Of a stretch of 32,000 nucleotides of DNA, positions 1,703 to 31,591 are shown piece after piece (the first letter of the stretch is position 1; every line of letters starts with the position of its first letter). The stretch is from NCBI GenBank assembly GCA_041674405.1, contig JBAYVT010000001.1:1-32000 (forward strand), in the 5' to 3' direction. The stretch comes from Patescibacteria group bacterium (GTDB lineage: Bacteria; Patescibacteriota; UBA1384; XYA2-FULL-43-10). The notes beneath the pieces were generated by a model that did not search any database, was not told the origin of the DNA, and saw only the letters and a list, made by a program, of their open reading frames with translations. The position numbers and the translations under genes are program-made.

Positions 1703-2464
1703 TTACGGGCGCAGCGTTCCGGCGAAGACTTGCCAAGCAAGCAAAGATTTGGCGACTAAACTCAGTATTATGTATGCCCTTTCGCCATAAAGATAATCCG
1801 CCCACTTGCCAACTTTTTTGTATTGTAGAATTTGGTTTATCGCAAAGCTGTTGAAGAAAACAAAGATTGAAAAATAAATCCAGTAGACAAAATCTGGTGC
1901 TTTGTTCTCTCCACCGCCGGCACCGAATAAATATATCGCGATAGCCGCCCAAGGAATGATTCCGGCGATACAGCCAAAAACAAACGAAGTCCAATTTGTC
2001 TTTTCTGTTGACTGGTTATGAAGCTCCATCATCCAACCAAAAAGAATCATACTTGCATTGACACCGACAAAGGCAATTAAAGTTGCAATATCATAAATAC
2101 CAACCAACATGGCGATAACGACGATCATCAAAGATGAAGAAATCGAGTATTCAATCCAACGGAAAAAGTTGATGTGCTTCGCTAAATTCTTATTGTAAAT
2201 TGCATTCAAGCCCGGCAGAGTGATTAAAAGGTGAAAAAACGCCGAGAGAAACAAAAATGATGCAACCAAGGGGCCAATTTTCAGATCAGCCAAAGTTTCC
2301 GGCGTTGGCACTAACTTTTTGACTGCGACATCAAATTTCAAAAATGATGCCGTAACCGGCAACGAGAACGTGCTCGAAACAATAAGCATCACAATGCCTT
2401 GTCCAAGATGCAGAAGAAACATAACAAGGTTGAATTTGCGCAGACCCTTAAGTTTTGCTTCCAT
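1703..2464 (-). CDS. Heliorhodopsin (7-TM retinal protein with inverted topology)
   Basis: 253 aa. The blocks LRKFNLVMFLLHLGQGIVMLIVSSTFSLPVTASFLKFD, RWIEYSISSSLMIVVIAML, ILFGWMMELHNQ, NWTSFVFGCIAGIIPW and YIILSLVAKSLLAWQVFAGTLRP match the heliorhodopsin sequences I remember (48C12, TaHeR). This includes the TM7 Schiff-base Lys (VAKS) and the Glu of the EYS counterion position. A GGAGG RBS lies in the 17-nt gap upstream. Confidence 0.85.
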   Translation of the reverse strand: MEAKLKGLRKFNLVMFLLHLGQGIVMLIVSSTFSLPVTASFLKFDVAVKKLVPTPETLADLKIGPLVASFLFLSAFFHLLITLPGLNAIYNKNLAKHINFFRWIEYSISSSLMIVVIAMLVGIYDIATLIAFVGVNASMILFGWMMELHNQSTEKTNWTSFVFGCIAGIIPWAAIAIYLFGAGGGENKAPDFVYWIYFSIFVFFNSFAINQILQYKKVGKWADYLYGERAYIILSLVAKSLLAWQVFAGTLRP

Positions 2465-6220: not shown

Positions 6221-6646
6221 TTGAAACCCGAAGAAGTGAAAGCATTGGCAAGTTGTTTTGTCAATCGGTGTGAGCAAGCGTTCGTCGACAATCCGCAGGG
6301 CCCGCAACTGCGCGTGTTCGAAAGAGGTGGACGATGGTATGCGGGTGTGATCCTGCGTATTTGCCGAGATATCGACACCTCAGTTGTGCTTGTAGTGCTA
6401 AGTGAGCATTTGCAGCTTGAGGTAGTCGAGGAAATCAAGCGAATGCGCCCCGGGGTCGATGTCGTGACGATCGCAAGATCTGTGAGAGTCAGAGTGTCAT
6501 CCTTTGTTGCGCGACTGGAATCCGGCGTATTGCTTTGCTTGACCGGAAGGCAAGCCGGTTTCCTCCAGTCGCTTCTCGTCACACTACCCGTGAGCGCAAT
6601 TCCCCTCGCACTCAGCCGCACAACCGAATCCGCAGCCGGCAACTAG
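6221..6646 (+). CDS. Orphan hypothetical protein (141 aa), GC-rich island 1
   Basis: A TTG start lies 6 nt after GGAGG (6211-6215). Codons are G-rich at position 1 and G/C-rich at position 3. The antisense ORF is S/T/R-rich and shadow-like. I recognise no family. The start codon and coding status are less certain than for the other islands. Confidence 0.45.
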   Translation: MKPEEVKALASCFVNRCEQAFVDNPQGPQLRVFERGGRWYAGVILRICRDIDTSVVLVVLSEHLQLEVVEEIKRMRPGVDVVTIARSVRVRVSSFVARLESGVLLCLTGRQAGFLQSLLVTLPVSAIPLALSRTTESAAGN

Positions 6647-8029: not shown

Positions 8030-9841
8030 TTAGTTCTTTTTTGCCCGGTAGCGTTCTGCAGCGGTGAGGAGTTTTTTGCGCATACGCAGGGATTGTGGGG
8101 TTACCTCAAGTAGTTCATCGTCTTCAAGAAAATCGATGCACTGCTCGAGAGACATTTTTGTATGAGGAGTTAAGATGGTTGCAATATCCGAATTCGAAGC
8201 GCGTACATTGGATAATTTCTTTTCCTTGGTAACGTTGATATCGAGGTCGTCTTCGCGGGAATTTAGCCCCACGATCATCCCAGCGTAAACATCTGTTTGA
8301 GGTGGGATAAAGGTGATTCCTCTCTGCTGGGCGATGTTTAAGCCATAAGTTACGGCTTTGCCAGATTCAAAGGCGATCATTACGCCGTTTCGAAGTTTTG
8401 GAATTGCTGCCCCAACTTTTTCATAGCGCAAAAAGATTGAGTTGATCACTGCTGTTCCTTTAGAAAGTGTCACCAAAGTATTGCGAAGGCCGAGTGTGCC
8501 GCGGGTTGATATCTCAAAAACCAGCCTTGTTGTGGAGTCTGAGTTTTGTGATTGGTGAATTAATATTCCTCGACGTCTGCTGATTTCGCCAATTACCGAA
8601 CTTGCAAATTTATCATCGACGTCGATGGTGAGTTCTTCGATTGGCTCGCAGGTTATTCCGTCAATTTCTCTGGTGATAACTTGGGGTTTGCCGACTTGAA
8701 GCTCGAATCCTTCACGGCGAAGGTTTTCGATAAACACCGATAGGTGGAGTTCACCTCTGCCGGAAATAATATAATTCCCGTCTGCAGCGACATGGAATCG
8801 CATCGCAATATTTGTCTCGAGCTCTTTCATTATTCGCTCGAGTAATTGCCGCAAGGTTACAAACTTGCCTTCGCGTCCGGCGAAAGGTGAAGTATTGGCG
8901 TACATCGAAATTGAAAGCGTAGGCTCCTCGATTGCCATTGAAGGAACGATGTCGATCTCTCCGGGGTCGCAGATTGTGTCGCCGATTGAAACTTTCGAAA
9001 GGCCGGCAATTGAAACAATATCGCCAGATAAGGCTTCCTTGACCTCAATTTTTCTTAGTCCTGCATTTTGAAATATTTTTTCCGCTTTTCCGCTCTGGAC
9101 AGCTCCCTCTTCGTTCGCTAAAACAACATTTTGGCTGGTGGAAATTTTCCCCCGGATTATTTTACCGATTGCGTATTTGCCCAAGAAATTATCGTAGCTG
9201 AGGGCAGAGACCAACATTTGAAACGGCTTGTCGTCGTCTTTTTGCGGCTCTGGTATATACTTAACTATTCCATCCATCACTGGGGTAAGATCTGCGGGAG
9301 AGGTAAAGTCTGCCGGCATTTTTTCCCAAGATTTTCCTTCCCGCCCGATTGCATAATAGATCGGAAAATCGAGCTCGCTATCATCTTTTGCAAGTTCTAG
9401 AAATAGGTCATAAGTTTTATTCAAGGTATTTTCGATATCAGCGTTATTTTTATCGATCTTATTTACGACAACGATAATTTTAAGGCCAATTTCGAGCGCC
9501 TTTTTAAGGACAAACTTGGTCTGGGGCATTGGCCCCTCTTTGGCGTCAATCACCAAGATAGCGCCGTCTGCCATATTCAGCGTTCGCTCGACCTCTCCGG
9601 CGAAATCCGCGTGTCCCGGAGTGTCAATAATATTTATTTTCACTCCCTTGTATTCGATAGAAGTATTTTTGGCAAGAATCGTAATTCCCCGCTCGCGCTC
9701 CTGATCGTTCGAATCTAAAATCAGAGTTTCCGACATTAAGGCCTCATTCTCACGGAATGTTTTTGACTGCTTCAAAAATCCATCAACAAGGGTGGTTTTG
9801 CCATGGTCAACGTGAGCGATTATTGCGACATTTTTTATCAT
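8030..9841 (-). CDS. typA: Translational GTPase TypA/BipA
   Basis: G1 AHVDHGKTTL, G3 DTPGHADF, G4 NKID, and EF-G-like domain order with the TypA C-terminal domain. The start is set at MIKNVAIIAHVDHGKT. The 13 upstream codons of the track ORF lie in a dispersed repeat. Confidence 0.95.
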   Translation of the reverse strand: MIKNVAIIAHVDHGKTTLVDGFLKQSKTFRENEALMSETLILDSNDQERERGITILAKNTSIEYKGVKINIIDTPGHADFAGEVERTLNMADGAILVIDAKEGPMPQTKFVLKKALEIGLKIIVVVNKIDKNNADIENTLNKTYDLFLELAKDDSELDFPIYYAIGREGKSWEKMPADFTSPADLTPVMDGIVKYIPEPQKDDDKPFQMLVSALSYDNFLGKYAIGKIIRGKISTSQNVVLANEEGAVQSGKAEKIFQNAGLRKIEVKEALSGDIVSIAGLSKVSIGDTICDPGEIDIVPSMAIEEPTLSISMYANTSPFAGREGKFVTLRQLLERIMKELETNIAMRFHVAADGNYIISGRGELHLSVFIENLRREGFELQVGKPQVITREIDGITCEPIEELTIDVDDKFASSVIGEISRRRGILIHQSQNSDSTTRLVFEISTRGTLGLRNTLVTLSKGTAVINSIFLRYEKVGAAIPKLRNGVMIAFESGKAVTYGLNIAQQRGITFIPPQTDVYAGMIVGLNSREDDLDINVTKEKKLSNVRASNSDIATILTPHTKMSLEQCIDFLEDDELLEVTPQSLRMRKKLLTAAERYRAKKN

Positions 9842-9898: not shown

Positions 9899-11155
9899 CT
9901 AGTTTGCTTCGACAAAAGTGAGCGCAAATCCCTTATTATTCCCTCTTCCAGTGCGGCCGATCCGGTGAATATAGTCATTATAGGTCTGGGGAATTGTGTA
10001 ATTGATAACATGCGAGACATTACTGATGTCAAGTCCGCGCGCGGCGACATCTGTGGCAACAAGAATTTGAATTTGGTCATCGCGAAATTTTGATAGCGCC
10101 TTCTGGCGTTGGTTTTGGCGCTTGTCTCCGTGGATAGAATCGGCTCGAAATCCACTCTCTGCGAGATTTTTAGTGAGTTTTTCCACATCGCGCTTGGTCT
10201 CTGAGAAAATAAGGACCTTTTTGGAGCCTTCTTTTGATAAAATATCTGTCAATCGATTGAACTTATTATCAGCGTGCACTTTTACAATATCTTGGTCGAC
10301 ATTTGCCGCTGTCTCACCAGTGATGGTTTTTACAATGACAGGGTTAATTAAAAATTCACGGACAAGAGTCTCGATTTTTATCGGTAGCGTTGCAGAGAAA
10401 AACAGCGATTGACGTTTGTCTGGAAGCTCGGCCAGAATTCGTTTAATTTCATCGACAAAGCCCATATCGAGCATCCGATCGATTTCATCGAGAACAATAT
10501 TTTGAAAAAATGAAAAATTAATATTGGCCCGGTCTTTTAGATCCTTGAGACGTCCGGGAGTACCAATGACGAAATTGGGATGGCTGCGGAGATCTGATAT
10601 CTGGCGGTAGATAGGTACGCCGCCGACGCAAATTGCCGAATATATTCCCATGCCTTTGGCAAATTTGCGAAATTCGACATTTATCTGCTGGGCAAGTTCG
10701 CGAGTTGGCGCAATGATAAGAACTTTTTGATTCTTGTCGCGAAAGCATTTATCGATTAAAGGTAGCAAAAATGCCGCTGTCTTCCCAGTCCCCGTATTGG
10801 CAAGTCCTAGAATATCGCGACCGGACATAACATGCCCGATCGATTGGTCTTGAATTGGAGTTGGAGTTTCGTAACCGATTTCCTTCAAGTTCATATTAAT
10901 TTTTTGTGAGAAAGAAAAATCAGCAAAATTGTGAATAATTTTTACGTGATTCGTGGCGGTGTTTGGAACTGCCTTTTTTACAAAGCGCTGAATATCAATC
11001 ACTTCACCCCTGTTGTGTCGACGAGAATTTTGTGAGTTTGAGTAGCGCGGACGTGAACTGAATTTTCCGTGAGCAGGCTTACTAAAATTTGGTTTTCCGA
11101 ACCGGGAAAATCCACGATCAAAAGAACGTTTTTGGTGAGATCTAAAATTTTGCAT
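9899..11155 (-). CDS. DEAD-box ATP-dependent RNA helicase
   Basis: Motif I ANTGTGKTAAF, Ia PTRELA, II VLDEIDRM (a DEID variant), III SAT and VI HRIGRTGR. There is a basic N-terminal extension. Confidence 0.95.
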   Translation of the reverse strand: MQNFRSHQKRSFDRGFSRFGKPNFSKPAHGKFSSRPRYSNSQNSRRHNRGEVIDIQRFVKKAVPNTATNHVKIIHNFADFSFSQKINMNLKEIGYETPTPIQDQSIGHVMSGRDILGLANTGTGKTAAFLLPLIDKCFRDKNQKVLIIAPTRELAQQINVEFRKFAKGMGIYSAICVGGVPIYRQISDLRSHPNFVIGTPGRLKDLKDRANINFSFFQNIVLDEIDRMLDMGFVDEIKRILAELPDKRQSLFFSATLPIKIETLVREFLINPVIVKTITGETAANVDQDIVKVHADNKFNRLTDILSKEGSKKVLIFSETKRDVEKLTKNLAESGFRADSIHGDKRQNQRQKALSKFRDDQIQILVATDVAARGLDISNVSHVINYTIPQTYNDYIHRIGRTGRGNNKGFALTFVEAN

Positions 11156-11416
11156 ACAATTTCCTACGCGAGATTTCGCGTTAATATTAAAACTTCGAAT
11201 AGCTCTTTAAGAACGTCGAAGTTTTAATTCGGAAATCTAAAGAACGATTTCGAGACTTCGAAAGTATATCATTAATTAGTATTTAAGTCAAGGATTGTAT
11301 CTCGATGAATTAAGAGGTTGTAAGCTTGATGATTGCTCAAGTTGTACCAGTATGAATTGAAAATAATCAATTTCTAAAGGTTAAAACCAATGCGGGCCAA
11401 TTAAAACACAAATAAA

Positions 11417-11483
11417 AAGACCAGAGGAATTAAATAAATTAATTGCTCTGGTCTTGCTCCGACAAACGTCGTCGGAGCACCAG
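11417..11483 (-). terminator. Tandem hairpins terminating the island-2 gene at 11513-11983
   Basis: On the minus strand GCTCCGAC-gacgttt-GTCGGAGC is followed by AAGACCAGAG-(19-nt loop)-CTCTGGTCTT and then TTTTATTTG. Confidence 0.55.
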
Positions 11484-11512
11484 TACCACCTCCAGTTCAC
11501 CAAGACTTGACG

Positions 11513-11983
11513 CTACAGCGCCGGCGGCTGCGGCATGCCGCAGCCAATCATTACGATACCCACGCTGCCTGCGGGTGCAGCCTCCATGATGCGCTCGACG
11601 GTGCACTGCGGGCAGGTGCATGTGGACTTGTCCCTCGTCCAGACCTTCCAACCTGCCGCGACTCCGTAGTGCCGCTCGCCGAAAAGGCCGAAGACAGCCT
11701 TCATCTCGTAGTCGTAGATGTCCGTGATGAGCTTCACCCGCGCTGCATGCTCGAGGCACTGGCGCAGGAAGTCCTTGTTGTCGTCTGTGTCCTGTTCCTC
11801 GATCTCATCGAGTTTCTTCAAGATGCCCTCGGCCTCCGGCCGGAAGCTCTCGATGAGGCTGTACAGGCGCTTCAGCTCCTCGGGCAGGTCCCCGATCACA
11901 TTGGCGTTCTCCGGGATCGGACCCTCGGGCTCGATTAGCTCAACTACTCCCATGCCAGCCAGTACGTCCTGAATCTTTAACAT
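11513..11983 (-). CDS. Orphan hypothetical protein (156 aa) with a CxCxxC motif, GC-rich island 2
   Basis: The ATG at 11983 lies 5 nt after AAGGTGA. Codon third positions are very G/C-rich. Acidic helical N-terminal half. C-terminal CTCPQC plus GCGMPQPP. No family recognised. Confidence 0.7.
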   Translation of the reverse strand: MLKIQDVLAGMGVVELIEPEGPIPENANVIGDLPEELKRLYSLIESFRPEAEGILKKLDEIEEQDTDDNKDFLRQCLEHAARVKLITDIYDYEMKAVFGLFGERHYGVAAGWKVWTRDKSTCTCPQCTVERIMEAAPAGSVGIVMIGCGMPQPPAL

Positions 11984-12038
11984 CGACATCACCTTTATTT
12001 TCACTGCCGATCGTTATCAGTCAGTGCCCCCTTGCCAC

Positions 12039-12088
12039 CTTTCGGGAGCAAATAATCGGAAATAATTCCAAACATTTGCTCCCGAAAG
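12039..12088 (-). promoter_or_regulatory. Strong 5'-UTR hairpin between promoter and RBS of the 11513-11983 gene
   Basis: Perfect 15-bp arms CTTTCGGGAGCAAAT (12039-12053) and ATTTGCTCCCGAAAG (12074-12088). The 20-nt loop contains a nested GGAA-ATAA-TTCC mini-hairpin. No U-tract follows on either strand. Confidence 0.6.
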
Positions 12089-12096
12089 ATTGAATA

Positions 12097-12125
12097 ATAT
12101 TAACATATTAATTCTGATCTGTCAA
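12097..12125 (-). promoter_or_regulatory. Near-consensus sigma70-type promoter for the 11513-11983 gene
   Basis: On the minus strand TTGACA (12125-12120), a 17-nt spacer ending in ATGT, then TAATAT (12102-12097). Confidence 0.6.
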
Positions 12126-12208
12126 CGATCGTGAATTGTAGTGTTTCTTGCCTTCGGTTGGCATAATCACACAATATACTTAAATTACAACCCTCTTAAT
12201 CAAAGAAC

Positions 12209-12226
12209 GAACCGGCACGCCGATTC
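12209..12226 (-). terminator. Possible terminator of the 12256-12891 gene
   Basis: On the minus strand GAATCGG-CGTG-CCGGTTC (one G-U pair) is followed by GTTCTTTGATT. Confidence 0.35.
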
Positions 12227-12255
12227 GCTCAATGATCATCCCCTCTTTTCCAGTT

Positions 12256-12891
12256 CTAGTGGCTCCTGCCCCCTCGGCCTCGGTCCTTTGCGCCGCGCGT
12301 ATCCTTGCCCTGAAGAGCAAGGCGCTTCTGCTTGTCGGCGCGCCTCTTCTTTTGCTCGTCGGTCGGCGATTTCTTCTTGCCCAAGATTCGCTCCTGGGTC
12401 GGCGATTTCCTCGCTTTCTCCTTGGCAAGAAGCGCGCGAACTTCGCGCTTAACCCAGCCATCAAGGCGGTCCAGGTGGACATCCCGTTCCTCCACGCAGA
12501 CGACCTGGAAGAGAAGCGGATCGGTCTTCTGGATGGAAACGCATACCTGCGTGTAGCATCCGTTCCGGTGGTAGATGACGCGGCCGGCGGTGATGAAGCA
12601 CACCGACTGCGGCTCCTTGTCCGGGTTGGTTGCGGTTGTGCTCGAGGCAATTCCCTCCTTCTGGTCGTCCAGGTGGATGCGGTCCGTATTTGTGGGTACG
12701 CTCACATCCATCAGGTTGACGAAGAGTCTCGCCTTGGGGATCCGCGCCATAGCTTGAGGAATCCGATACATCCCGTTGCCCTGGTCGGCAAGCTTGACGA
12801 AGAGCCGCTGCCCGACTACCAAGCAGGCAAGCCTGTGATTGTGGATAATGGCGGCATTGCCATTGTTCCGTGAAACCGCGAAATACAGCAT
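12256..12891 (-). CDS. Orphan hypothetical protein (211 aa) with a K/R-rich C-terminal tail, GC-rich island 2
   Basis: The ATG at 12891 lies 5 nt after GGAGG. A globular N-terminal region of about 150 aa is followed by the tail KEKARKSPTQERILGKKKSPTDEQKKRRADKQKRLALQGKDTRGAKDRGRGGRSH. The tail contains a 12-codon-spaced KSPT repeat, encoded by the 13-nt direct repeat GGTCGGCGATTTC at 12361 and 12397. Confidence 0.7.
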   Translation of the reverse strand: MLYFAVSRNNGNAAIIHNHRLACLVVGQRLFVKLADQGNGMYRIPQAMARIPKARLFVNLMDVSVPTNTDRIHLDDQKEGIASSTTATNPDKEPQSVCFITAGRVIYHRNGCYTQVCVSIQKTDPLLFQVVCVEERDVHLDRLDGWVKREVRALLAKEKARKSPTQERILGKKKSPTDEQKKRRADKQKRLALQGKDTRGAKDRGRGGRSH

Positions 12892-12929
12892 TTTTTCCTC
12901 CTGAGTATTGGTGTGATTGCGGCGATATT

Positions 12930-12958
12930 GTTTTAACATAAATTGTTTAGTTTGTAAA
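12930..12958 (-). promoter_or_regulatory. Sigma70-type promoter for the 12256-12891 gene
   Basis: On the minus strand TTTACA (12958-12953), a 17-nt spacer ending in ATGT, then TAAAAC (12935-12930). Confidence 0.45.
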
Positions 12959-12980
12959 CCTTTAAAAAGGATGTAAACAC

Positions 12981-13012
12981 AAAAACACCGCCGGTGTTCA
13001 GGGCGGTGTTTT
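12981..13012 (-). terminator. Rho-independent (bidirectional-type) terminator downstream of ppdK
   Basis: ACACCGCC...GGCGGTGT stem flanked by an A-run (12981-12985) and a T-run (13009-13012). Confidence 0.7.
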
Positions 13013-13077: not shown

Positions 13078-15726
13078 CTATTTGGAAGTATAGCTGATTC
13101 CGGATTTCGCGGCGATTACGGCTTGTGCAGCGGCAAGTCTGGCGATTGGGACGCGATATGGTGAGCAGGAAACATAATTCATCTTTACTTTGTGGCAGAA
13201 GTGAATTGTGGTAGGATCTCCGCCGTGCTCTCCACAGATGCCGACTTTCAGATTCTTCTTTGATGATCGGCCTTTCTCGATCCCAATCTCAACCATTTTG
13301 CCGACACCGTCTTGGTCGAGAGTTTGGAATGGATCAGCGTCAAAGATGCCAATTTCCTTGTAAACTTTGATGAATTTGCCGGCGTCGTCGCGGGAGAAGC
13401 CCATTGTCATTTGGGTTAAGTCGTTGGTTCCGAAGGAGAAGAATTCAGCTTTCTCAGCGATCTCGTCTGCAGTTACAGCGGCTCGTGGAACTTCGATCAT
13501 TGTGCCAACCTTATAGTCGATCTTGGTTTTGTATTCGGACATGACTCGGGTAGCAGTTTCATCAACAACTTTCTTCTGGTTCTCAAACTCCTTGACATTG
13601 CCTACAAGCGGGATCATGATTTCCGGAACGATCTTAAATCCATCTTTCGCAAGTTCGCAAGCGGCAGAGATGATAGCTTCAGCCTGCATCTCGGTGATTT
13701 CCGGATATGTAATTCCGAGGCGGCAACCGCGGTGGCCAAGCATCGGATTGAATTCGTGCAAATCTTCAGAAACCTGTTTGATCTTGGATTCAGAAATACC
13801 GATTTTTTTCGAAAGAGCTTTGACATCCTCGTTTGTCTTTGGCAAAAACTCATGCAAAGGCGGGTCCAAAAGACGGATGGTTACCGGAAAACCCTTCATT
13901 TCGCGGAAGAGGCCAAGGAAATCTTCTTTCTGGAAAGGTAAGAGCTTTTTCAAGGCTTTTCTTCTTTCGTCTTCGGTATCGGCAAGAATCATCTGTTGCA
14001 TGAATGGAAGGCGCTTCTCGTCGAAAAACATGTGTTCGGTGCGGCAGAGGCCGATGCCTTCGGCGCCAAATTCTCGAGCGGTCTTGGCATCAGTCGGCGT
14101 GTCTGCATTGGTGCGAACTCCGAGGACGCGGGTTTTGTCAGCCCAGCCCATGAGAGTCTTGAATTCGGCTTTGATCTCCGGCTCGATTGTTTTGACCTCG
14201 CCAAGGATGACTTGGCCGGTAGAGCCGTTTAGGGCGATCCATTCCCCTGCTTTGACTGTATATGAACCAACAGTAAATTTCTTCGCTTTTTCATCAATCT
14301 TTATATCACCGCAGCCGGCAACGCATGTTTTGCCCATTCCGCGGGCAACAACTGCGGCGTGGCTGGTCATACCGCCGCGGCAGGTCAAGATTCCCTGTGC
14401 TGCGTACATGCCGTGGATATCATCCGGTGAGGTCTCAGCGCGGACCAGGACGACCTTTTCGTTGTCGCCAAGTTCGGCAGCGGTATCTGCGTCGAAAACG
14501 ACCTTACCGACAGCGGCACCGGGAGAGGCCGGAAGTCCCATTGCGATAACCTCAAGCGTAGCTTTCGGATCGATGACAGGGTGCAAAAGCTGGTCGATAG
14601 TTTCCGGTTCTAGCCGCATTACAGCTTCGTCTTCTCCGATCATTTTCTCTTTGACCAAATCAACAGCGATCTTGACAGCAGCTTGGGCAGTTCTTTTGCC
14701 GGTTCTGGTCTGTAACATGTAGAGCTTGTTTCTTTCGATGGTAAACTCAAAATCCTGAACATCTTTATAATGTTTTTCAAGTTTGTCTGTGATTGCCTTG
14801 AGCTCTGTAAATGCTTTTGGCATCTCCTTCTTGAGATCGGCTATCGGGTGCGGCGTGCGTACGCCGGCTACAACATCTTCGCCCTGTGCATTGGTAAGGA
14901 ATTCACCGTAGAACTCCTTATCACCAGTGGAAGGATTTCTAGTGAATCCGACGCCGGTGGCGCAGTCATCACCCATGTTGCCGAAGACCATTGCCTGGAC
15001 ATTTACGGCTGTTCCCAAATTGTGAGGAATGTTATTCAAGTTTCTGTAAGTATTGGCTCGGTCATTGCCCCAGCTCTCGAATACCGCTTTGTAGGCCATT
15101 TCAAGTTGTTTAGCCGGATCCTCTGGAAATTCTTTGCCGGTCTCTTTCTTGACCAATTTTTTATATCCGTCGATCACATCTAGAAGATCGTCGGCGGTGA
15201 GGTCGGTATCAAGTTTAGCACCGGCTTTGTCTTTGACAAGATCTAGAACATGTTCAAATTTGTCTTTGTCGATAGCAAGTACGACATTTCCGAACATCTG
15301 GATAAATCTTCGGTAGGCGTCGTGAGCAAATCGGGAATTCCCGGTAAGCTCGGCCATGCCTTTGACAGTTTCATCGTTCAAGCCAAGGTTTAGGATCGTA
15401 TCCATCATACCCGGCATCGAGAACTTGGCGCCGGAACGGACGGAGAGAAGGAGCGGATTTTTGGCGTCGCCGAATTTTTTTCCGGTTGACTTTTCAACTT
15501 TTGCAAGCATTGGTGCAAGCTCGGAGTCAAAGTCCTTCGGCAGTTTCTTGCCGTTGTTGTAATAGTAATTGCACATTTCGGTCGTGATAGTAAAACCTGA
15601 TGGGACCGGAACGCCTAAATTCGACATTTCGGCAAGGTTTGCGCCTTTACCGCCCAAGAGAGCTTTCATTTCCGCTTTGCCTTCGGCTTTTCCGTCACCG
15701 AAATAATAGATGTACTTCGTACTCAT
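13078..15726 (-). CDS. ppdK: Pyruvate, phosphate dikinase
   Basis: 882 aa with the N-terminal GGKGANLAEM, the phospho-histidine swivel motif GGMTSHAAVVARGMG and the C-terminal PEP-utilising motif VGICGEHGGDP. Confidence 0.97.
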   Translation of the reverse strand: MSTKYIYYFGDGKAEGKAEMKALLGGKGANLAEMSNLGVPVPSGFTITTEMCNYYYNNGKKLPKDFDSELAPMLAKVEKSTGKKFGDAKNPLLLSVRSGAKFSMPGMMDTILNLGLNDETVKGMAELTGNSRFAHDAYRRFIQMFGNVVLAIDKDKFEHVLDLVKDKAGAKLDTDLTADDLLDVIDGYKKLVKKETGKEFPEDPAKQLEMAYKAVFESWGNDRANTYRNLNNIPHNLGTAVNVQAMVFGNMGDDCATGVGFTRNPSTGDKEFYGEFLTNAQGEDVVAGVRTPHPIADLKKEMPKAFTELKAITDKLEKHYKDVQDFEFTIERNKLYMLQTRTGKRTAQAAVKIAVDLVKEKMIGEDEAVMRLEPETIDQLLHPVIDPKATLEVIAMGLPASPGAAVGKVVFDADTAAELGDNEKVVLVRAETSPDDIHGMYAAQGILTCRGGMTSHAAVVARGMGKTCVAGCGDIKIDEKAKKFTVGSYTVKAGEWIALNGSTGQVILGEVKTIEPEIKAEFKTLMGWADKTRVLGVRTNADTPTDAKTAREFGAEGIGLCRTEHMFFDEKRLPFMQQMILADTEDERRKALKKLLPFQKEDFLGLFREMKGFPVTIRLLDPPLHEFLPKTNEDVKALSKKIGISESKIKQVSEDLHEFNPMLGHRGCRLGITYPEITEMQAEAIISAACELAKDGFKIVPEIMIPLVGNVKEFENQKKVVDETATRVMSEYKTKIDYKVGTMIEVPRAAVTADEIAEKAEFFSFGTNDLTQMTMGFSRDDAGKFIKVYKEIGIFDADPFQTLDQDGVGKMVEIGIEKGRSSKKNLKVGICGEHGGDPTTIHFCHKVKMNYVSCSPYRVPIARLAAAQAVIAAKSGISYTSK

Positions 15727-15904: not shown

Positions 15905-16690
15905 ATGATCCCGATGTACCTGAAGGATATTCCGATCGGTCCACATGTGGGTAAGGTGGTTGAAGAGTTCGATTCCGACACAGAGACACGCTACAGCATC
16001 CTGTCGGGCGTGTTCAACAACCAGGGATATATCCTCTCCCGCGAGGATGTAGAGGAAGAGTTCGGCAAGAACTCGTGCCTCCTTGACTTCATTTCACACG
16101 TTCATCTGCGCGAGCAGATGGCTGGATTAACCTTGTGGCTCAAGACTTTCGTCGCAGAAGTGAGAGGCGAAGGCGCTGCTCGTGTCATGTTTCCCGAATT
16201 TGAAGAGCACAACGCACGAATACACTTGTTGCGAAGCGAGTGGATTCGCCACGAGGCCATTCGGGAGGCTACCAACGACGCGCTGAAAGCCCTGGCGGAA
16301 TGCATGCGATGGTTCAACATTCAGATGGTGGCGGGATGGATCCAGCGCACCCTGACGGATGTGCTGGAACAGATGGAAATCTGCATGGATTTCGATGCAT
16401 TCGAAGTGCCGCGGCAGTGTTCGTTGCTCGACGATCTGGCGTATCGTATGGGCAGAAGCGAGATGCGGTCGTCATGCGCCCGCGCCTACAACAGCCTGGC
16501 TGTCGCCTGTGAGTCGAGCCCGATCTTCAAAGACGTGGTGCTTCTTCCTCCCGAAAAGATTGTTCGTCTCGGACAGTGGCGCATGGGGCTGATCCAAGAT
16601 CCGGGTCTTGTCCCAGAAGAGAAGCCCGAGGAGGACGAGGACGATTACGCCCTGAACGAATCCGGCATATTCGTGCCGAAGAAGAAGTGA
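15905..16690 (+). CDS. Orphan hypothetical protein (261 aa), GC-rich island 3
   Basis: The ATG at 15905 lies 6 nt after AGGAG (15894-15898). Codons are GC3-rich. The protein is helical-looking and acidic, with the tail PEEKPEEDEDDYALNESGIFVPKKK. No family recognised. Confidence 0.7.
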   Translation: MIPMYLKDIPIGPHVGKVVEEFDSDTETRYSILSGVFNNQGYILSREDVEEEFGKNSCLLDFISHVHLREQMAGLTLWLKTFVAEVRGEGAARVMFPEFEEHNARIHLLRSEWIRHEAIREATNDALKALAECMRWFNIQMVAGWIQRTLTDVLEQMEICMDFDAFEVPRQCSLLDDLAYRMGRSEMRSSCARAYNSLAVACESSPIFKDVVLLPPEKIVRLGQWRMGLIQDPGLVPEEKPEEDEDDYALNESGIFVPKKK

Positions 16691-20125: not shown

Positions 20126-20551
20126 ATGGCTGAGACGTACTTGTTTCGTGGCCGTCCGCATTGCCGGATTTCTGGTCTGGGTGTAGCGCACCTTAAGGCA
20201 AATGCCGGCAATACACTGGCGTACGTAAGGCTGGGCATCGTCCTCGAAGACGGACTGACGCAGGAGGGCGTCAGTGCTACAGGGCGGTACTACGACGGTG
20301 AAGGGAAAACAAGGGAACGCGGTCATGCAGACAATGCTAGCGTCATTACAGTTCTCGCGATGCTAAATGACACCTGCAGGAATCTCAGCCGCGAAGCGAA
20401 TGTCAAACATGCCCATTTCAACTTCGACGGTAAGGAAGTTGAGGTCGGCATTGAGTTCCATGCGCGCAGAAATGTCGGTCAGGCATTTTTGTCCAGCGTA
20501 GCGGATCTCTTCGAGGAGTCGTTTGCTGCCGTCAGTGCGGCGGTAGCCTAG
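20126..20551 (+). CDS. Orphan hypothetical protein (141 aa), GC-rich island 4
   Basis: The ATG at 20126 is downstream of GGAGGGGG (20108-20115), a rather long spacing. Composition is coding-like. No family recognised. Confidence 0.6.
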   Translation: MAETYLFRGRPHCRISGLGVAHLKANAGNTLAYVRLGIVLEDGLTQEGVSATGRYYDGEGKTRERGHADNASVITVLAMLNDTCRNLSREANVKHAHFNFDGKEVEVGIEFHARRNVGQAFLSSVADLFEESFAAVSAAVA

Positions 20552-20714: not shown

Positions 20715-21077
20715 TCAGCTCTCCTGGTCGAGCTCGAGGTTCTCGACCAGGGCCTGGAAGAGCATATCTCCAGGTGTCTGGGGACCCACATCTTTGCTGG
20801 TTTCGTAGAAGAAGCTATTGCCATCTTCCAGGGAAAGCTCCAGGTCAAGAACTCGTCGAAATTCCCCGTCACCATCGAGGTCAAGAATCTCGTACAAAGT
20901 GGTGATGAGGTCGGAGAGCTCTGATATATCGCAGAGCCGCTCCGGCATGACGAAACGCGAAGCCTGGAGTTGTGCCCGAATCTTGCTGACGAGCGACCGA
21001 TTACACCATGGCGACTCCTTAATGAACTCGTCAATGGCCATGTTGATCTTCACAGAGAGCGGTCTCTCTGGGATCAT
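20715..21077 (-). CDS. Orphan small acidic protein (120 aa) with a DxDxDG-like loop, GC-rich island 4
   Basis: The ATG at 21077 lies 9 nt after GGAGG (21091-21087 on the minus strand). The C-terminal half is strongly acidic (EILDLDGDGEFRRVLDLELSLEDG...ENLELDQES). It is convergent with the 20126-20551 gene. Confidence 0.65.
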   Translation of the reverse strand: MIPERPLSVKINMAIDEFIKESPWCNRSLVSKIRAQLQASRFVMPERLCDISELSDLITTLYEILDLDGDGEFRRVLDLELSLEDGNSFFYETSKDVGPQTPGDMLFQALVENLELDQES

Positions 21078-28423: not shown

Positions 28424-30025
28424 ATGTTTGAAAATAATCTATTTAAACGTTCCAAAAACAACGGCTTTAAAAAGTCTCCGCTTGTGTTGATTGTTTTAGA
28501 TGGTTGGGGAATCGCCCCGTCTTGGGGAGGAAATGCAATAACATTATCATCTACTCCGGTGTTTGATGGTCTCTTGCGTGAATATCCATCCACCGCCCTA
28601 CAAGCTTCTGGCCTAGCTGTTGGCCTTCCGGACGGCGCGCCTGGCAACTCTGAAGCTGGACATTTAAATATCGGGGCTGGAAGAATTGTACACCAAGATA
28701 TCTCACTTATCGATTCAGCGATAGAAAACGGAGATTTTTTTAAAAACGATATTCTCCGTGAAACATATGAACATGCAGAAAAAAACGAGAGCAACATTCA
28801 CATTATGGGGCTCTTGTCTGATGTTGGCACGCATAGCCACATACGGCATCTGGATGCATTGCTTAAGTATTTTAAAGATAAAAATTTTAATCGGATATAC
28901 ATTCATCTTTTTTCTGATGGCAGAGATTCTGATCCGATGTATGGAATTGAGCTAATTGGCAAGGTTAACAAAATAATTGAAGGCGCTGGTATTGGCAGGA
29001 TCGAATCTATCATGGGCCGTTTTTATGCAATGGACCGCGATAACCGCTGGGGGCGCACAGCCCGTGCTTATAATTGTTTTGTCCGATCTGAGGCAGAATC
29101 GGTAGAAAACGCTAACGAAGTTTTTTCCAGATCATATGCTGCTGGCACAACCGATGAATTTATTGAGCCAAGAATAATTAATAATAAAAATTTTCATTTC
29201 GTTCCCATCCGGGATAATGATTCAATAATAATTTTTAATTTTAGATATGACAGGGTCAACCAACTAATTGATTGTTTCGTTAAAGATTCGATTGATCGCT
29301 TTCCCGACCATAGAAAGCTCCAAAACCTTTTTGTTTCTTCCTTTGCGAACAGCTCTGATATGACAAAATTTAAAACGATTATACAAGCTCCTAAAATAGA
29401 AAATCCGATTGCCAAAGTTTTATCAGAAAACGGCTTGAAGCAATTACATATTGCTGAAACAGAGAAATTTCCTCATGTAACCTATTTTTTTAATGGTGGC
29501 ATTGATGAGGCAAACAAGAATGAAGACCGGTTAAGAATTCCCTCGCCCAAGGTTCGAACATACGACCTTAAGCCTGAAATGAGTGCCGATAAGGTTTTAA
29601 AGTCTGTACTCTCTGCGCTGAATAAAAATATTTATGATTTTTATGTTGTAAATTTTGCCAATCCTGACATGGTGGGCCATACCGGAAATTTAAAGGCTAC
29701 CATGCACGCTGTTTCGTTCGTCGACCAGTGCCTTGGACAGATAATACTTAGTATCCAGAGTAAAAACGGAACCGCGGTAATATGCGCTGACCATGGTAAC
29801 GCCGAACAAATGGTTAATCCGCAAACCGGTGATCCGGATACGGAACACACGACCAATCCTGTTCCGTTTATTGTGGTAAGTGATAATTTGAAAGATAAAA
29901 TTTCACTCAACTCAAACGGCTCGTTATCAAATATTGCCCCGAGTATTTTGGATCTTTTGAATATAGATGTTCCAAATGAAATGAAAACCAAAGAAAGTTT
30001 AATCATAAAACGGGAGATGATTTAG
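28424..30025 (+). CDS. gpmI: 2,3-bisphosphoglycerate-independent phosphoglycerate mutase
   Basis: 533 aa with all the hallmark motifs: LIVLDGWG, GNSEAGHLNIGAGR, DVGTHSH, FSDGRDS, AMDRDNRW, NFANPDMVGHTG, ADHGNAE and TEHT. Confidence 0.95.
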   Translation: MFENNLFKRSKNNGFKKSPLVLIVLDGWGIAPSWGGNAITLSSTPVFDGLLREYPSTALQASGLAVGLPDGAPGNSEAGHLNIGAGRIVHQDISLIDSAIENGDFFKNDILRETYEHAEKNESNIHIMGLLSDVGTHSHIRHLDALLKYFKDKNFNRIYIHLFSDGRDSDPMYGIELIGKVNKIIEGAGIGRIESIMGRFYAMDRDNRWGRTARAYNCFVRSEAESVENANEVFSRSYAAGTTDEFIEPRIINNKNFHFVPIRDNDSIIIFNFRYDRVNQLIDCFVKDSIDRFPDHRKLQNLFVSSFANSSDMTKFKTIIQAPKIENPIAKVLSENGLKQLHIAETEKFPHVTYFFNGGIDEANKNEDRLRIPSPKVRTYDLKPEMSADKVLKSVLSALNKNIYDFYVVNFANPDMVGHTGNLKATMHAVSFVDQCLGQIILSIQSKNGTAVICADHGNAEQMVNPQTGDPDTEHTTNPVPFIVVSDNLKDKISLNSNGSLSNIAPSILDLLNIDVPNEMKTKESLIIKREMI

Positions 30026-31591
30026 TTGGAAAAGATTACTTCGAAAAAAGTTTGTTTGATAATACTGGACGGCTGGGGTTTCTCGCTAAATCGCGCTGGA
30101 AATGCAATTTTTTTAGCTGGCCCAAGGAACTTCGATAATTTATGGCAATCATATGGCCATGCAGTTCTATCGACTCATAGCAATTTACAGAAAAATAACG
30201 ATGATAGTATTAATTCTCAAATTTGTTATACACAAATCTCGGCTGGTCGATTTGTTAAAAGCGAATCTCAAATCATTGCTGATGAATTTACGAGCGGAAA
30301 TTTTTTAGAAAATGAGGTTTTAAACAACACATTTTTAAATGCAATTTCCCATGACTCAAACGTTCATTTTGTTTGTCCAATAGATGAAAGTGAATATTCC
30401 CTGGAATATATATATGGCCTTCTAAAAATGGCATCATCGTATCAGGAGGTTTCTGTATATATCCACTTGGTAATTTCAAAGGATAACTCATACCAGGAAC
30501 TTTACCAAGTCCTGGACAAGATAAAAGATTCTACCTCAAAGACCAGTAATTGCATCATTGCATCAATATTCGGAAGTGATTATTCAGCGTATGACATAAC
30601 GGAATATTCAAAAATTCTTTCGGCCTACAATGCAATCATTTGGGGCGAAGGAAAACAATATTTTGAGATATCGCAAGTCCTAAAGTCCAACGAGGAAAAA
30701 AATGTCAGACCCCACCAAATTGAGCCATCCATTATCGTAAACGATGGTAAAGCCGTAGGAATTTCATCAGATTTCGATAACTTTATATTTAGTTCAGTAA
30801 CAGGTGAACCAGTCAAAATGCTTTTTATATCTCTGGCTAATGGTATAAAAAGCGTAAAATCACGCCGAAAATTTAATCTTAAGCTTATTCCGTTTGCTGA
30901 TTATTTACACACTAAAAGTGTAAGTTGTGATCATGTATTCAAAAGTGTGGCAATATCGCCAAACTTATCGGAGATTATTAGTAAGTCTGGGATTGGTCAA
31001 TTTCACGTTGGGGAAAGCATAAATGAAGATGAAGTAAGTTTTTATTTTAATGGCAGGATATCAAATAATTTTCCTGAAGAAAAAATTATGATTGTCACGT
31101 CTTCTGAAAACTCTGCAAAGAACCATGGTTTGTCTTCGTCTTATATTGCCAAAGTAACGATTGACCAAATGATGAAGAACAAAGAGTGTTTTATTGTCGC
31201 CGGCTTTGCAAATGTTGATTATTTTGCTCATACTAAAGATGTGAGATCTACCGCCTTGGCAGTAGCCGCGCTTGATGATTGTTTAAAATTAATTTATGAC
31301 GCATCGATAAGAACAAACACAACTCTGGTGATTACGGGAAGTCACGGAAACGCGGAAAATATGGCAAGAAGTGCCAATTTAGATACGTTCTCGAAAAGTC
31401 CTGTTCCTTTCATTGTCGTTTCACCGGAAACGAGAAAAAACACAACCTCTCAATTCAGACAGGTAAATTTTTCAAGCATGATTTCTTTGAAACATTCAAT
31501 TTGTGATATTGCCCCAACAATTTTAAACATCATGGATATTAAAATTCCATCAGAGTTTTCCGGGAGAAGTCTTATAAATTATTTAGAATAG
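30026..31591 (+). CDS. Divergent iPGM paralogue with degenerate catalytic motifs (possible pseudoenzyme)
   Basis: A TTG start directly follows the gpmI stop, with GGGAG upstream. It is collinear with iPGM (LIILDGWG, INSQ, FYFNGR, GFANVDYFAHTKD, GSHGNAE). However, GGVHSH, DGRD, MDRD, the D of DHGN and the H of EHT are all replaced. Confidence 0.8.
   Translation: MEKITSKKVCLIILDGWGFSLNRAGNAIFLAGPRNFDNLWQSYGHAVLSTHSNLQKNNDDSINSQICYTQISAGRFVKSESQIIADEFTSGNFLENEVLNNTFLNAISHDSNVHFVCPIDESEYSLEYIYGLLKMASSYQEVSVYIHLVISKDNSYQELYQVLDKIKDSTSKTSNCIIASIFGSDYSAYDITEYSKILSAYNAIIWGEGKQYFEISQVLKSNEEKNVRPHQIEPSIIVNDGKAVGISSDFDNFIFSSVTGEPVKMLFISLANGIKSVKSRRKFNLKLIPFADYLHTKSVSCDHVFKSVAISPNLSEIISKSGIGQFHVGESINEDEVSFYFNGRISNNFPEEKIMIVTSSENSAKNHGLSSSYIAKVTIDQMMKNKECFIVAGFANVDYFAHTKDVRSTALAVAALDDCLKLIYDASIRTNTTLVITGSHGNAENMARSANLDTFSKSPVPFIVVSPETRKNTTSQFRQVNFSSMISLKHSICDIAPTILNIMDIKIPSEFSGRSLINYLE

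Follow-up and report, generated by a model that had tools for sequence, protein, structure and literature searches.

Two GC-rich genes in an AT-rich Patescibacteria chromosome: a very rare protein family with a conserved basic tail and an acidic protein with a cysteine cluster

Analyses of a 32,000-nt stretch of DNA from an AT-rich Patescibacteria (candidate phyla radiation, CPR) bacterium (contig JBAYVT010000001.1 of assembly GCA_041674405.1, positions 1 to 32,000; hereafter the window) revealed two adjacent coding genes of foreign composition, gene A (12256-12891, minus strand, 211 aa, isoelectric point (pI) 10.1) and gene B (11513-11983, minus strand, 156 aa, pI 4.6). Each has expression signals of its own, and A belongs to a small family whose other members are solitary and share with it a conserved basic tail. 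The reading that we favour, with a confidence somewhat better than even, is that A and B are two independent acquired accessory genes, that the tail of A binds nucleic acid non-specifically and that B is an unrelated protein which may bind metal.

Both genes sit between those for PPDK (13078-15726, minus strand) and a DEAD helicase (9899-11155, minus strand), the flanks being made up of PPDK, DEAD helicase and BipA. The overall GC content of the window is about 0.40 and that of its highest 500-nt bin (11501-12000) is 0.596; an initial annotation of this DNA had placed the GC-richest segment here and two minus-strand open reading frames (ORFs) at these coordinates, and the ORF listing agreed with it. 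GC contents at the first, second and third codon positions were 0.60, 0.41 and 0.76 in A and 0.62, 0.38 and 0.82 in B, a strong coding periodicity, while the long antisense ORFs gave the mirror pattern with the first position highest, as expected for non-coding antisense frames. On this periodicity, the Shine-Dalgarno sites and, for A, the homologues described below, the earlier call of two genuine genes holds: homology closes the case that A is a real gene, and for B the evidence is its periodicity and expression signals. NCBI annotates A and B as hypothetical proteins MFA7243688.1 (WC080_00085) and MFA7243687.1 (WC080_00080). The DNA of A and B was found 100% identical in three independent assemblies, so the segment is no assembly chimera. 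NCBI and Logan call a 227-aa version of A that starts at 12939; an AGGAGG Shine-Dalgarno sequence (12897-12902, minus strand, read from the sequence) lies 5 nt before the ATG at 12891, and since the MLY, MLF or MVY N-terminus is kept in three homologues the start is fixed at 12891. No Rfam family at gathering score and no tRNA was found within the segment, and a structured non-coding RNA as the cause of the GC-rich island was rejected on the lack of an Rfam family and on the strong three-base periodicity.

The compositional background for A and B was formed by 35 further genes of this genome, located in the window and in about 17 kb of its flanks (L167 and L169). GC content at third codon positions (GC3) was 0.369 +/- 0.055 in this background, 0.76 in A (z +7.2) and 0.82 in B (z +8.3), and the fraction of G-ending codons for Lys, Glu and Gln was 0.28 +/- 0.06, 0.82 (z +8.4) and 0.94 (z +10.3), respectively. 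The amino-acid composition of both proteins is likewise GC-shifted, and the three spacers around the genes are host-like, with a GC content of 0.36-0.40. Since the central-metabolism genes AckA and PFOR have low GC3, the shift does not look like expression-linked bias or translational selection, and expression-driven codon bias was rejected as its cause.

An exhaustive HMMER search with A of a library of 1.84 billion representative proteins recovered three full-length relatives, P0003 (E 3e-11), P0004 (E 7e-7) and P0005 (E 1e-4), with 27-33% identity, while a word-indexed protein search with A gave self-matches only. A profile of the four-member alignment (A1) found no further members in a collection of 5.8 billion proteins, and the alignment had no significant match in Pfam or PHROGs; neither A nor its three homologues matched Pfam or NCBIfam even at E <= 10. 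By these comparisons A is the founding member of an undescribed and very rare family of four. The two genes had been described as orphans, which for A is not strictly true given its three remote homologues, while B is without relative in the word-indexed search. The A1 alignment comprises an N-terminal region of about 145 aa with alternating hydrophobic, strand-like patterns, an MLY-type N-terminus common to the members, the invariant pairs G103-R104 and W146-V147, and a common tail motif, KKPTxEE..RR..KQKRLA..GKxTRG..G.G.R. Known histone-like and nucleoid families (HU, Hc1/Hc2, H1, Lsr2 and H-NS) were rejected for A, none giving a profile match, and so was the only match of a PDB profile search with the family, mS46 (E 0.05), a compositional match on the A tail.

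Each A-family gene occupies a different chromosomal site, and the three homologue genes have a GC content of 0.55-0.63 in AT-richer flanks. In locus L084, P0003 stands alone between an RNase P RNA gene and a glycosyltransferase gene; in L085 the homologue is again solitary and is convergent with a DEAD helicase about 64% identical to that of the window; in L086, P0005 lies at the contig end after other GC-rich orphans. In three of the four genomes the neighbours are RNA-related, L084 having the RNase P RNA gene, L085 the DEAD helicase and the window DEAD helicase and BipA, which hints weakly at RNA as the ligand of A.

Two observations were made at these loci. The RNase P RNA gene of L084 (735-1163, minus strand) is of bacterial class A, scores 125 bits, is divergent beside P0003 and lies in a 1-kb stretch that the gene caller left blank. 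An orphan of 155 aa in L086 (7638-8105, plus strand; GC 0.61), 2 kb upstream of P0005, ends in an Arg-rich tail, SPRRRRSRAWRRAG, and has no detectable relation to A.

The N-terminal domain of A (about 147 aa) is followed, after W146-V147, by a tail of 64 aa with 38% Lys and Arg and a net charge of +16; the K/R-rich tail reported earlier, given there as about 55 aa, is present. Split at the same W-V junction, the tails of P0003 and P0005 have net charges of +12 and +13. With its motif in all three homologues, the basic tail is by alignment a conserved feature and no compositional accident. Residues 178-194 are modelled as a helix, the sole confident part of the single-sequence AlphaFold2 model, and the C-terminal end is RG-rich (RGAKDRGRGGR; GRGRRRR at the counterpart in P0004). 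Nucleic-acid binding by A through this tail is plausible.

The tail carries a 36-nt in-frame partial duplication (12351-12412, minus strand; repeat family D1) with the units RKSPTQ and KKSPTD 12 codons apart. The initial annotation had given this spacing of the two units and the 13-nt repeat GGTCGGCGATTTC at 12361 and 12397; both are confirmed, the repeat being exact and extending to 22 matches in 26 nt. The likeness to SPKK-type minor-groove DNA-binding tails that had been drawn from the two units was rejected. The units read S-P-T-Q and S-P-T-D, with no basic residue after S-P, and the Ser is not conserved, the matching positions in the homologues being KKPTTEE, KKPETPE and KELTREE. Only the second KSPT copy aligns with the conserved KKPTxEE, and the duplication is private to this copy of A.

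Protein B consists of an acidic N-terminal part of 100 aa, with a net charge of -12, and a C-terminal cysteine cluster, CTCPQC...GCGMPQPPAL; its Cys residues are 76, 122, 124, 127 and 148. The CTCPQC...GCGMPQPP ending noted earlier was found as described (Cys 122, 124, 127 and 148), and of the acidic and helical N-terminus the acidity was confirmed, while helicity is predicted at low confidence. No homologue of B was found by the word-indexed search, which gave self-matches only, or in PDB, phages, plasmids, IMG/VR and about 170 fetched loci, a PDB match to Skp1 (E about 0.6) being dismissed as chance-level. On the favoured reading, B is a lineage-restricted acidic protein whose C-terminal Cys cluster may bind metal.

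A strong promoter-like site of B (12097-12125, minus strand; TTGACA-17-TAATAT, TG-extended, 10 of 12 matches) was found by the consensus promoter scan, and a Shine-Dalgarno-like AAGGTGA (11989-11995, minus strand), read from the sequence, lies 5 nt before the ATG. The gene ends in a terminator (11407-11479, minus strand; inverted repeat I2) of two tandem hairpins followed by a U-tract (free energy -38.2 kcal/mol, z -4.3). The candidate promoter of A (12930-12958, minus strand; TTTACA-17-TAAAAC, TG-extended), inferred by reading the sequence, is weaker than that of B and below the threshold of the scan, and the hairpin 3' of A (12205-12230, minus strand; 11-bp stem, -23.4 kcal/mol, z -3.7) has only three U behind the stem and is by these features a weak intrinsic terminator. 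That each gene has expression signals of its own, as first proposed, is supported, those of A being the weaker. A bidirectional terminator of PPDK (12982-13012, minus strand; inverted repeat I10) sets that gene apart from A. The extended -10 motif TATGTTAA is common to the promoters of A, B and the orphan at 15905. The 272-nt spacer between A and B holds the hairpin 3' of A, the strong promoter of B and a 54-nt leader hairpin; co-transcription as an operon was rejected on these grounds and A and B look like separate transcription units.

The leader hairpin of B (12037-12090, minus strand; 23-nt arms, -36.4 kcal/mol, z -8.7; inverted repeat I1) lies where the B transcript is predicted to begin and has no U-tract behind it; it could be a 5' stem-loop that stabilises the mRNA, or a binding site. 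No second copy was found in all fetched DNA or in viral contigs, so that a repeated element was rejected, and its sole Rfam match by E-value is a chance-level miRNA. Promoter and leader hairpin of B are flanked by an imperfect 13-nt inverted repeat (CGATCGTTATCAG / CTGTCAACGATCG) and together make up a nested palindromic element of about 124 nt at 12008-12131, which is unique in all fetched DNA.

Searches of Pfam, PHROGs, PADLOC and NCBIfam gave no significant match for A or B, and sequence and profile searches of PDB gave matches at chance level or by composition only; PADLOC returned 0 families for both, and a known toxin-antitoxin or defence module was rejected on that result, while PHROGs gave nothing better than E 0.05. 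IMG/VR scans with the A1 profile and with B and tblastn searches of INPHARED phages and of plasmids found nothing, and a literature search gave nothing specific. The suggestion in the initial annotation of a phage-derived pair finds no support, with no match in PHROGs, INPHARED phages or IMG/VR and with PPDK, DEAD helicase and BipA as flanks.

Four more ORFs of the window are GC3-rich (15905-16690, plus strand; 20715-21077, minus strand; 20126-20551, plus strand; 6221-6646, plus strand), with GC3 of 0.57-0.69 against a genome mean of 0.37; they have no Pfam match and are scattered singly among core genes. The gene at 15905 carries TATGTTAA at the same distance from its start as A does. No kinship was detected among A, B and these four ORFs, and paralogy of the GC-rich orphans was rejected, since they are unrelated to one another. 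Among the remaining GC-rich orphans in the window, most are acidic and stand alone. The island was scanned for terminal or target-site repeats around it, and the edges of all GC-rich orphans for shared motifs; only chance-level 11-12-mers and the common promoter motif were found. PPDK itself has a GC3 of 0.54, the highest among the 35 background genes, and in 0 of 80 genome-derived related loci does it adjoin the DEAD helicase; PPDK, A, B and the 15905 orphan may all be parts of one larger acquired block, at about 11.4-16.7 kb.

A survey of 87 AT-rich CPR loci with 1189 ORFs revealed nine GC3 outliers, three of them in this window and all others in four other loci, most of these in the closest relatives, L087, L088 and L005. 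Loci L087 (9550-12058 and 301-1065) and L088 (1860-2861) carry GC3-rich genes of ordinary enzyme families (radical SAM, HD domain and FabH) in AT-rich contigs, in keeping with a clade that often takes up GC-rich genes. L005, from a CPR metagenome-assembled genome (MAG) that bears the label uncultured Saccharibacteria, shows the DEAD-BipA synteny of the window, and there the slot directly upstream of the DEAD helicase is occupied by a different GC3-rich orphan, of 224 aa (9014-9688, plus strand; GC3 0.67). This orphan is unlike A or B and without a Pfam match, and its position suggests that the slot is an insertion hot spot. No homologue of A or B was found in 160 CPR loci anchored on the DEAD helicase (80 genomic and 80 metagenomic). 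These loci are at most 79% identical, and synteny among them is insufficient to define insertion boundaries; full-length comparison of the DEAD helicase of the window with its counterparts in other CPR MAGs gives 66-68% identity at most.

These data are read most simply as repeated uptake of GC-rich genes by the clade, A and B being two of the genes so gained. The AT-rich CPR chromosome would have acquired both horizontally from a GC-richer gene pool, and we infer that they are independent in function: two separately transcribed accessory genes which form no conserved two-gene system. The tail, which is conserved in the A family, carries a charge of +12 to +16, is RG-rich at its end and is predicted to contain a basic helix, would most likely give non-specific electrostatic binding of RNA or DNA. 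The specific activity would reside in the N-terminal domain, which is beta-rich and about 145 aa long; B would be an unrelated acidic protein, possibly metal-binding.

Several points weigh against this reading. Neither an integrase, a transposase, an att-like repeat nor a phage gene was found flanking A and B, and among about 15 billion proteins neither a donor nor a reservoir of GC-rich composition was found for the A family. All four family members lie in AT-richer contexts, their identity of only 27-33% is odd for recent transfers, and the GC shift ends at the boundaries of the coding sequences. The sample of three homologue loci is small, with two informative downstream contexts only, and the finding of no B beside A is of limited power, the sensitivity for B being limited. 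B was searched for by the word-indexed method only, which also missed the relatives of A, so that its status as a singleton is provisional. The argument for nucleic-acid binding is drawn from the charge and conservation of the tail only, and no known DNA- or RNA-binding family matched A in Pfam, with the four-member alignment or in the PDB profile search. Neither single-sequence AlphaFold model was of usable quality, the predicted local distance difference test score (pLDDT) being 40 for A and 36.6 for B.

A two-component module had been proposed in the initial annotation, and conserved adjacency of homologues had been named among its tests. Three homologues of A were found and in none of their loci (L084, L085 and L086) is there a B-like ORF nearby, and A and B are separate transcription units; as none of the three stands beside a B-like gene, the proposal falls by the measure set for it. 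A functional pair may also be framed in terms of charge, with the acidic B neutralising or chaperoning the basic tail of A or mimicking nucleic acid for it, in the manner of a toxin-antitoxin or of a nucleoid protein and its DNA mimic. The two genes are adjacent, co-oriented and of the same extreme codon usage (GC3 of 0.76 and 0.82), suggesting joint acquisition, and their proteins are oppositely charged (pI 10.1 and 4.6; +16 in the A tail and -12 in the first 100 aa of B). However, each has its own promoter with a hairpin between the genes, a B-like neighbour occurs in 0 of 3 homologue loci, PADLOC, Pfam and NCBIfam offer no toxin-antitoxin or defence match, and acidity without a partner is what most other GC-rich orphans of the window display as well. 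We regard such a pair as distinctly unlikely.

Preference for two independent acquisitions must also be set against a native origin, in which A, and possibly B as well, would be lineage-specific to some CPR subgroup (RNA-, ribosome- or nucleoid-associated, for instance) and would owe their GC content to selection or a gene-specific bias and not to recent transfer. Though deeply diverged, the A-family genes are in all four cases GC-richer than their flanks, three of the four have RNA-related core neighbours and the promoters are host-type; the lack of a visible GC-rich reservoir among about 15 billion proteins is what keeps alive a composition maintained within CPR genomes. On the other hand, the family has only four known members, with none in 160 related CPR loci, and no two genomes have it at the same position. 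A- and G-ending codons are inverted far more strongly than in any background gene, the compositional outlier PPDK included, and sister MAGs hold GC-rich FabH, radical SAM and HD genes whose composition suggests transfer. A native origin is accordingly judged unlikely but of some weight. That one or both ORFs are not genes, being chance frames in GC-rich, stop-poor non-coding or decaying foreign DNA, appears very improbable: long ORFs do occur on both strands here, B is without a detected homologue, the AlphaFold2 models are of low confidence and three identical assemblies offer no variation that could show selection, but the periodicity GC3 > GC1 > GC2 is strong in the called frames only, well-spaced Shine-Dalgarno sites, promoters and terminators frame each ORF precisely, A has full-length homologues and no Rfam family lies in the segment. 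It is a long shot, finally, that the A family and the other GC-rich orphans dispersed over this genome and its nearest relatives form a CPR-specific class in which GC-rich coding is actively maintained, such as effectors for a GC-richer host cell. If this were so, the tail of A would be a secretion or host-nucleoid-targeting signal (of the bipartite KK-x10-KKRR type or like positively charged C-terminal export signals), and the lack of a GC-rich donor among 15 billion proteins would be real and no sampling gap.

Phage morons, or single-gene compositional islets in the concept of Hendrix and Juhala, are self-contained transcription units of a composition unlike that of their neighbours. Genes A and B resemble them in having each its own promoter and terminator, unrelated neighbours and a sharply different composition, and differ from them in that core genes of a bacterial chromosome (PPDK, DEAD helicase and BipA) surround them, not a prophage, and in lacking any match to a phage family; unlike the usual AT-rich foreign DNA, they are GC-richer than the host. 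Tails rich in Lys and Arg are found on actinobacterial HU/Hlp proteins (PAKK/KAAK repeats), chlamydial Hc1 and eukaryotic H1 (SPKK tails). A shares with these a folded domain followed by a strongly positive tail of about 55-65 aa, but there is no sequence match to them, and its tail has one conserved mixed-charge motif and a predicted helix, not a tetrapeptide repeat of low complexity. RGG/RG-box and arginine-rich RNA-binding tails occur on some DEAD-box helicases and on RNase E. The RG-rich end of the A tail after a basic helix and the RNA-related neighbours in three of four genomes are reminiscent of these, while the tails of the A family have one or two RG dipeptide clusters, and the proteins show no recognisable RNA-binding domain and no profile support. 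Among Cys-cluster sites are the CxxC of thiol-disulfide oxidoreductases and the CxC...CxxC zinc centre of the Hsp33 type. In B the motif is likewise C-x-C-x-x-C (CTCPQC), its core is CPxC and another Cys follows 21 residues later; no profile of the thioredoxin fold or of Hsp33 matches B, and its motif is 30 residues from the C-terminus, too little for a thioredoxin fold.

If the favoured reading is right, the result is mostly one of annotation, a new and very rare family of four members that combine an N-terminal domain of about 145 aa with a basic tail conserved among them, together with a small Patescibacteria clade that accumulates single-gene GC-rich insertions among core genes. It may be of use to those who study how genes enter the streamlined genomes of episymbiotic bacteria and offers a candidate nucleic-acid-binding protein. 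A and B represent a tiny new family and a compositional oddity; they make up no new system and resolve no open question. The curious point is that four of four A-family members are GC-rich in AT-richer genomes with no visible GC-rich reservoir.

Two further features of the window, both from precomputed Pfam matches, are a heliorhodopsin gene (1703-2464, minus strand) and two tandem paralogues of cofactor-independent phosphoglycerate mutase (28424-31591, plus strand).

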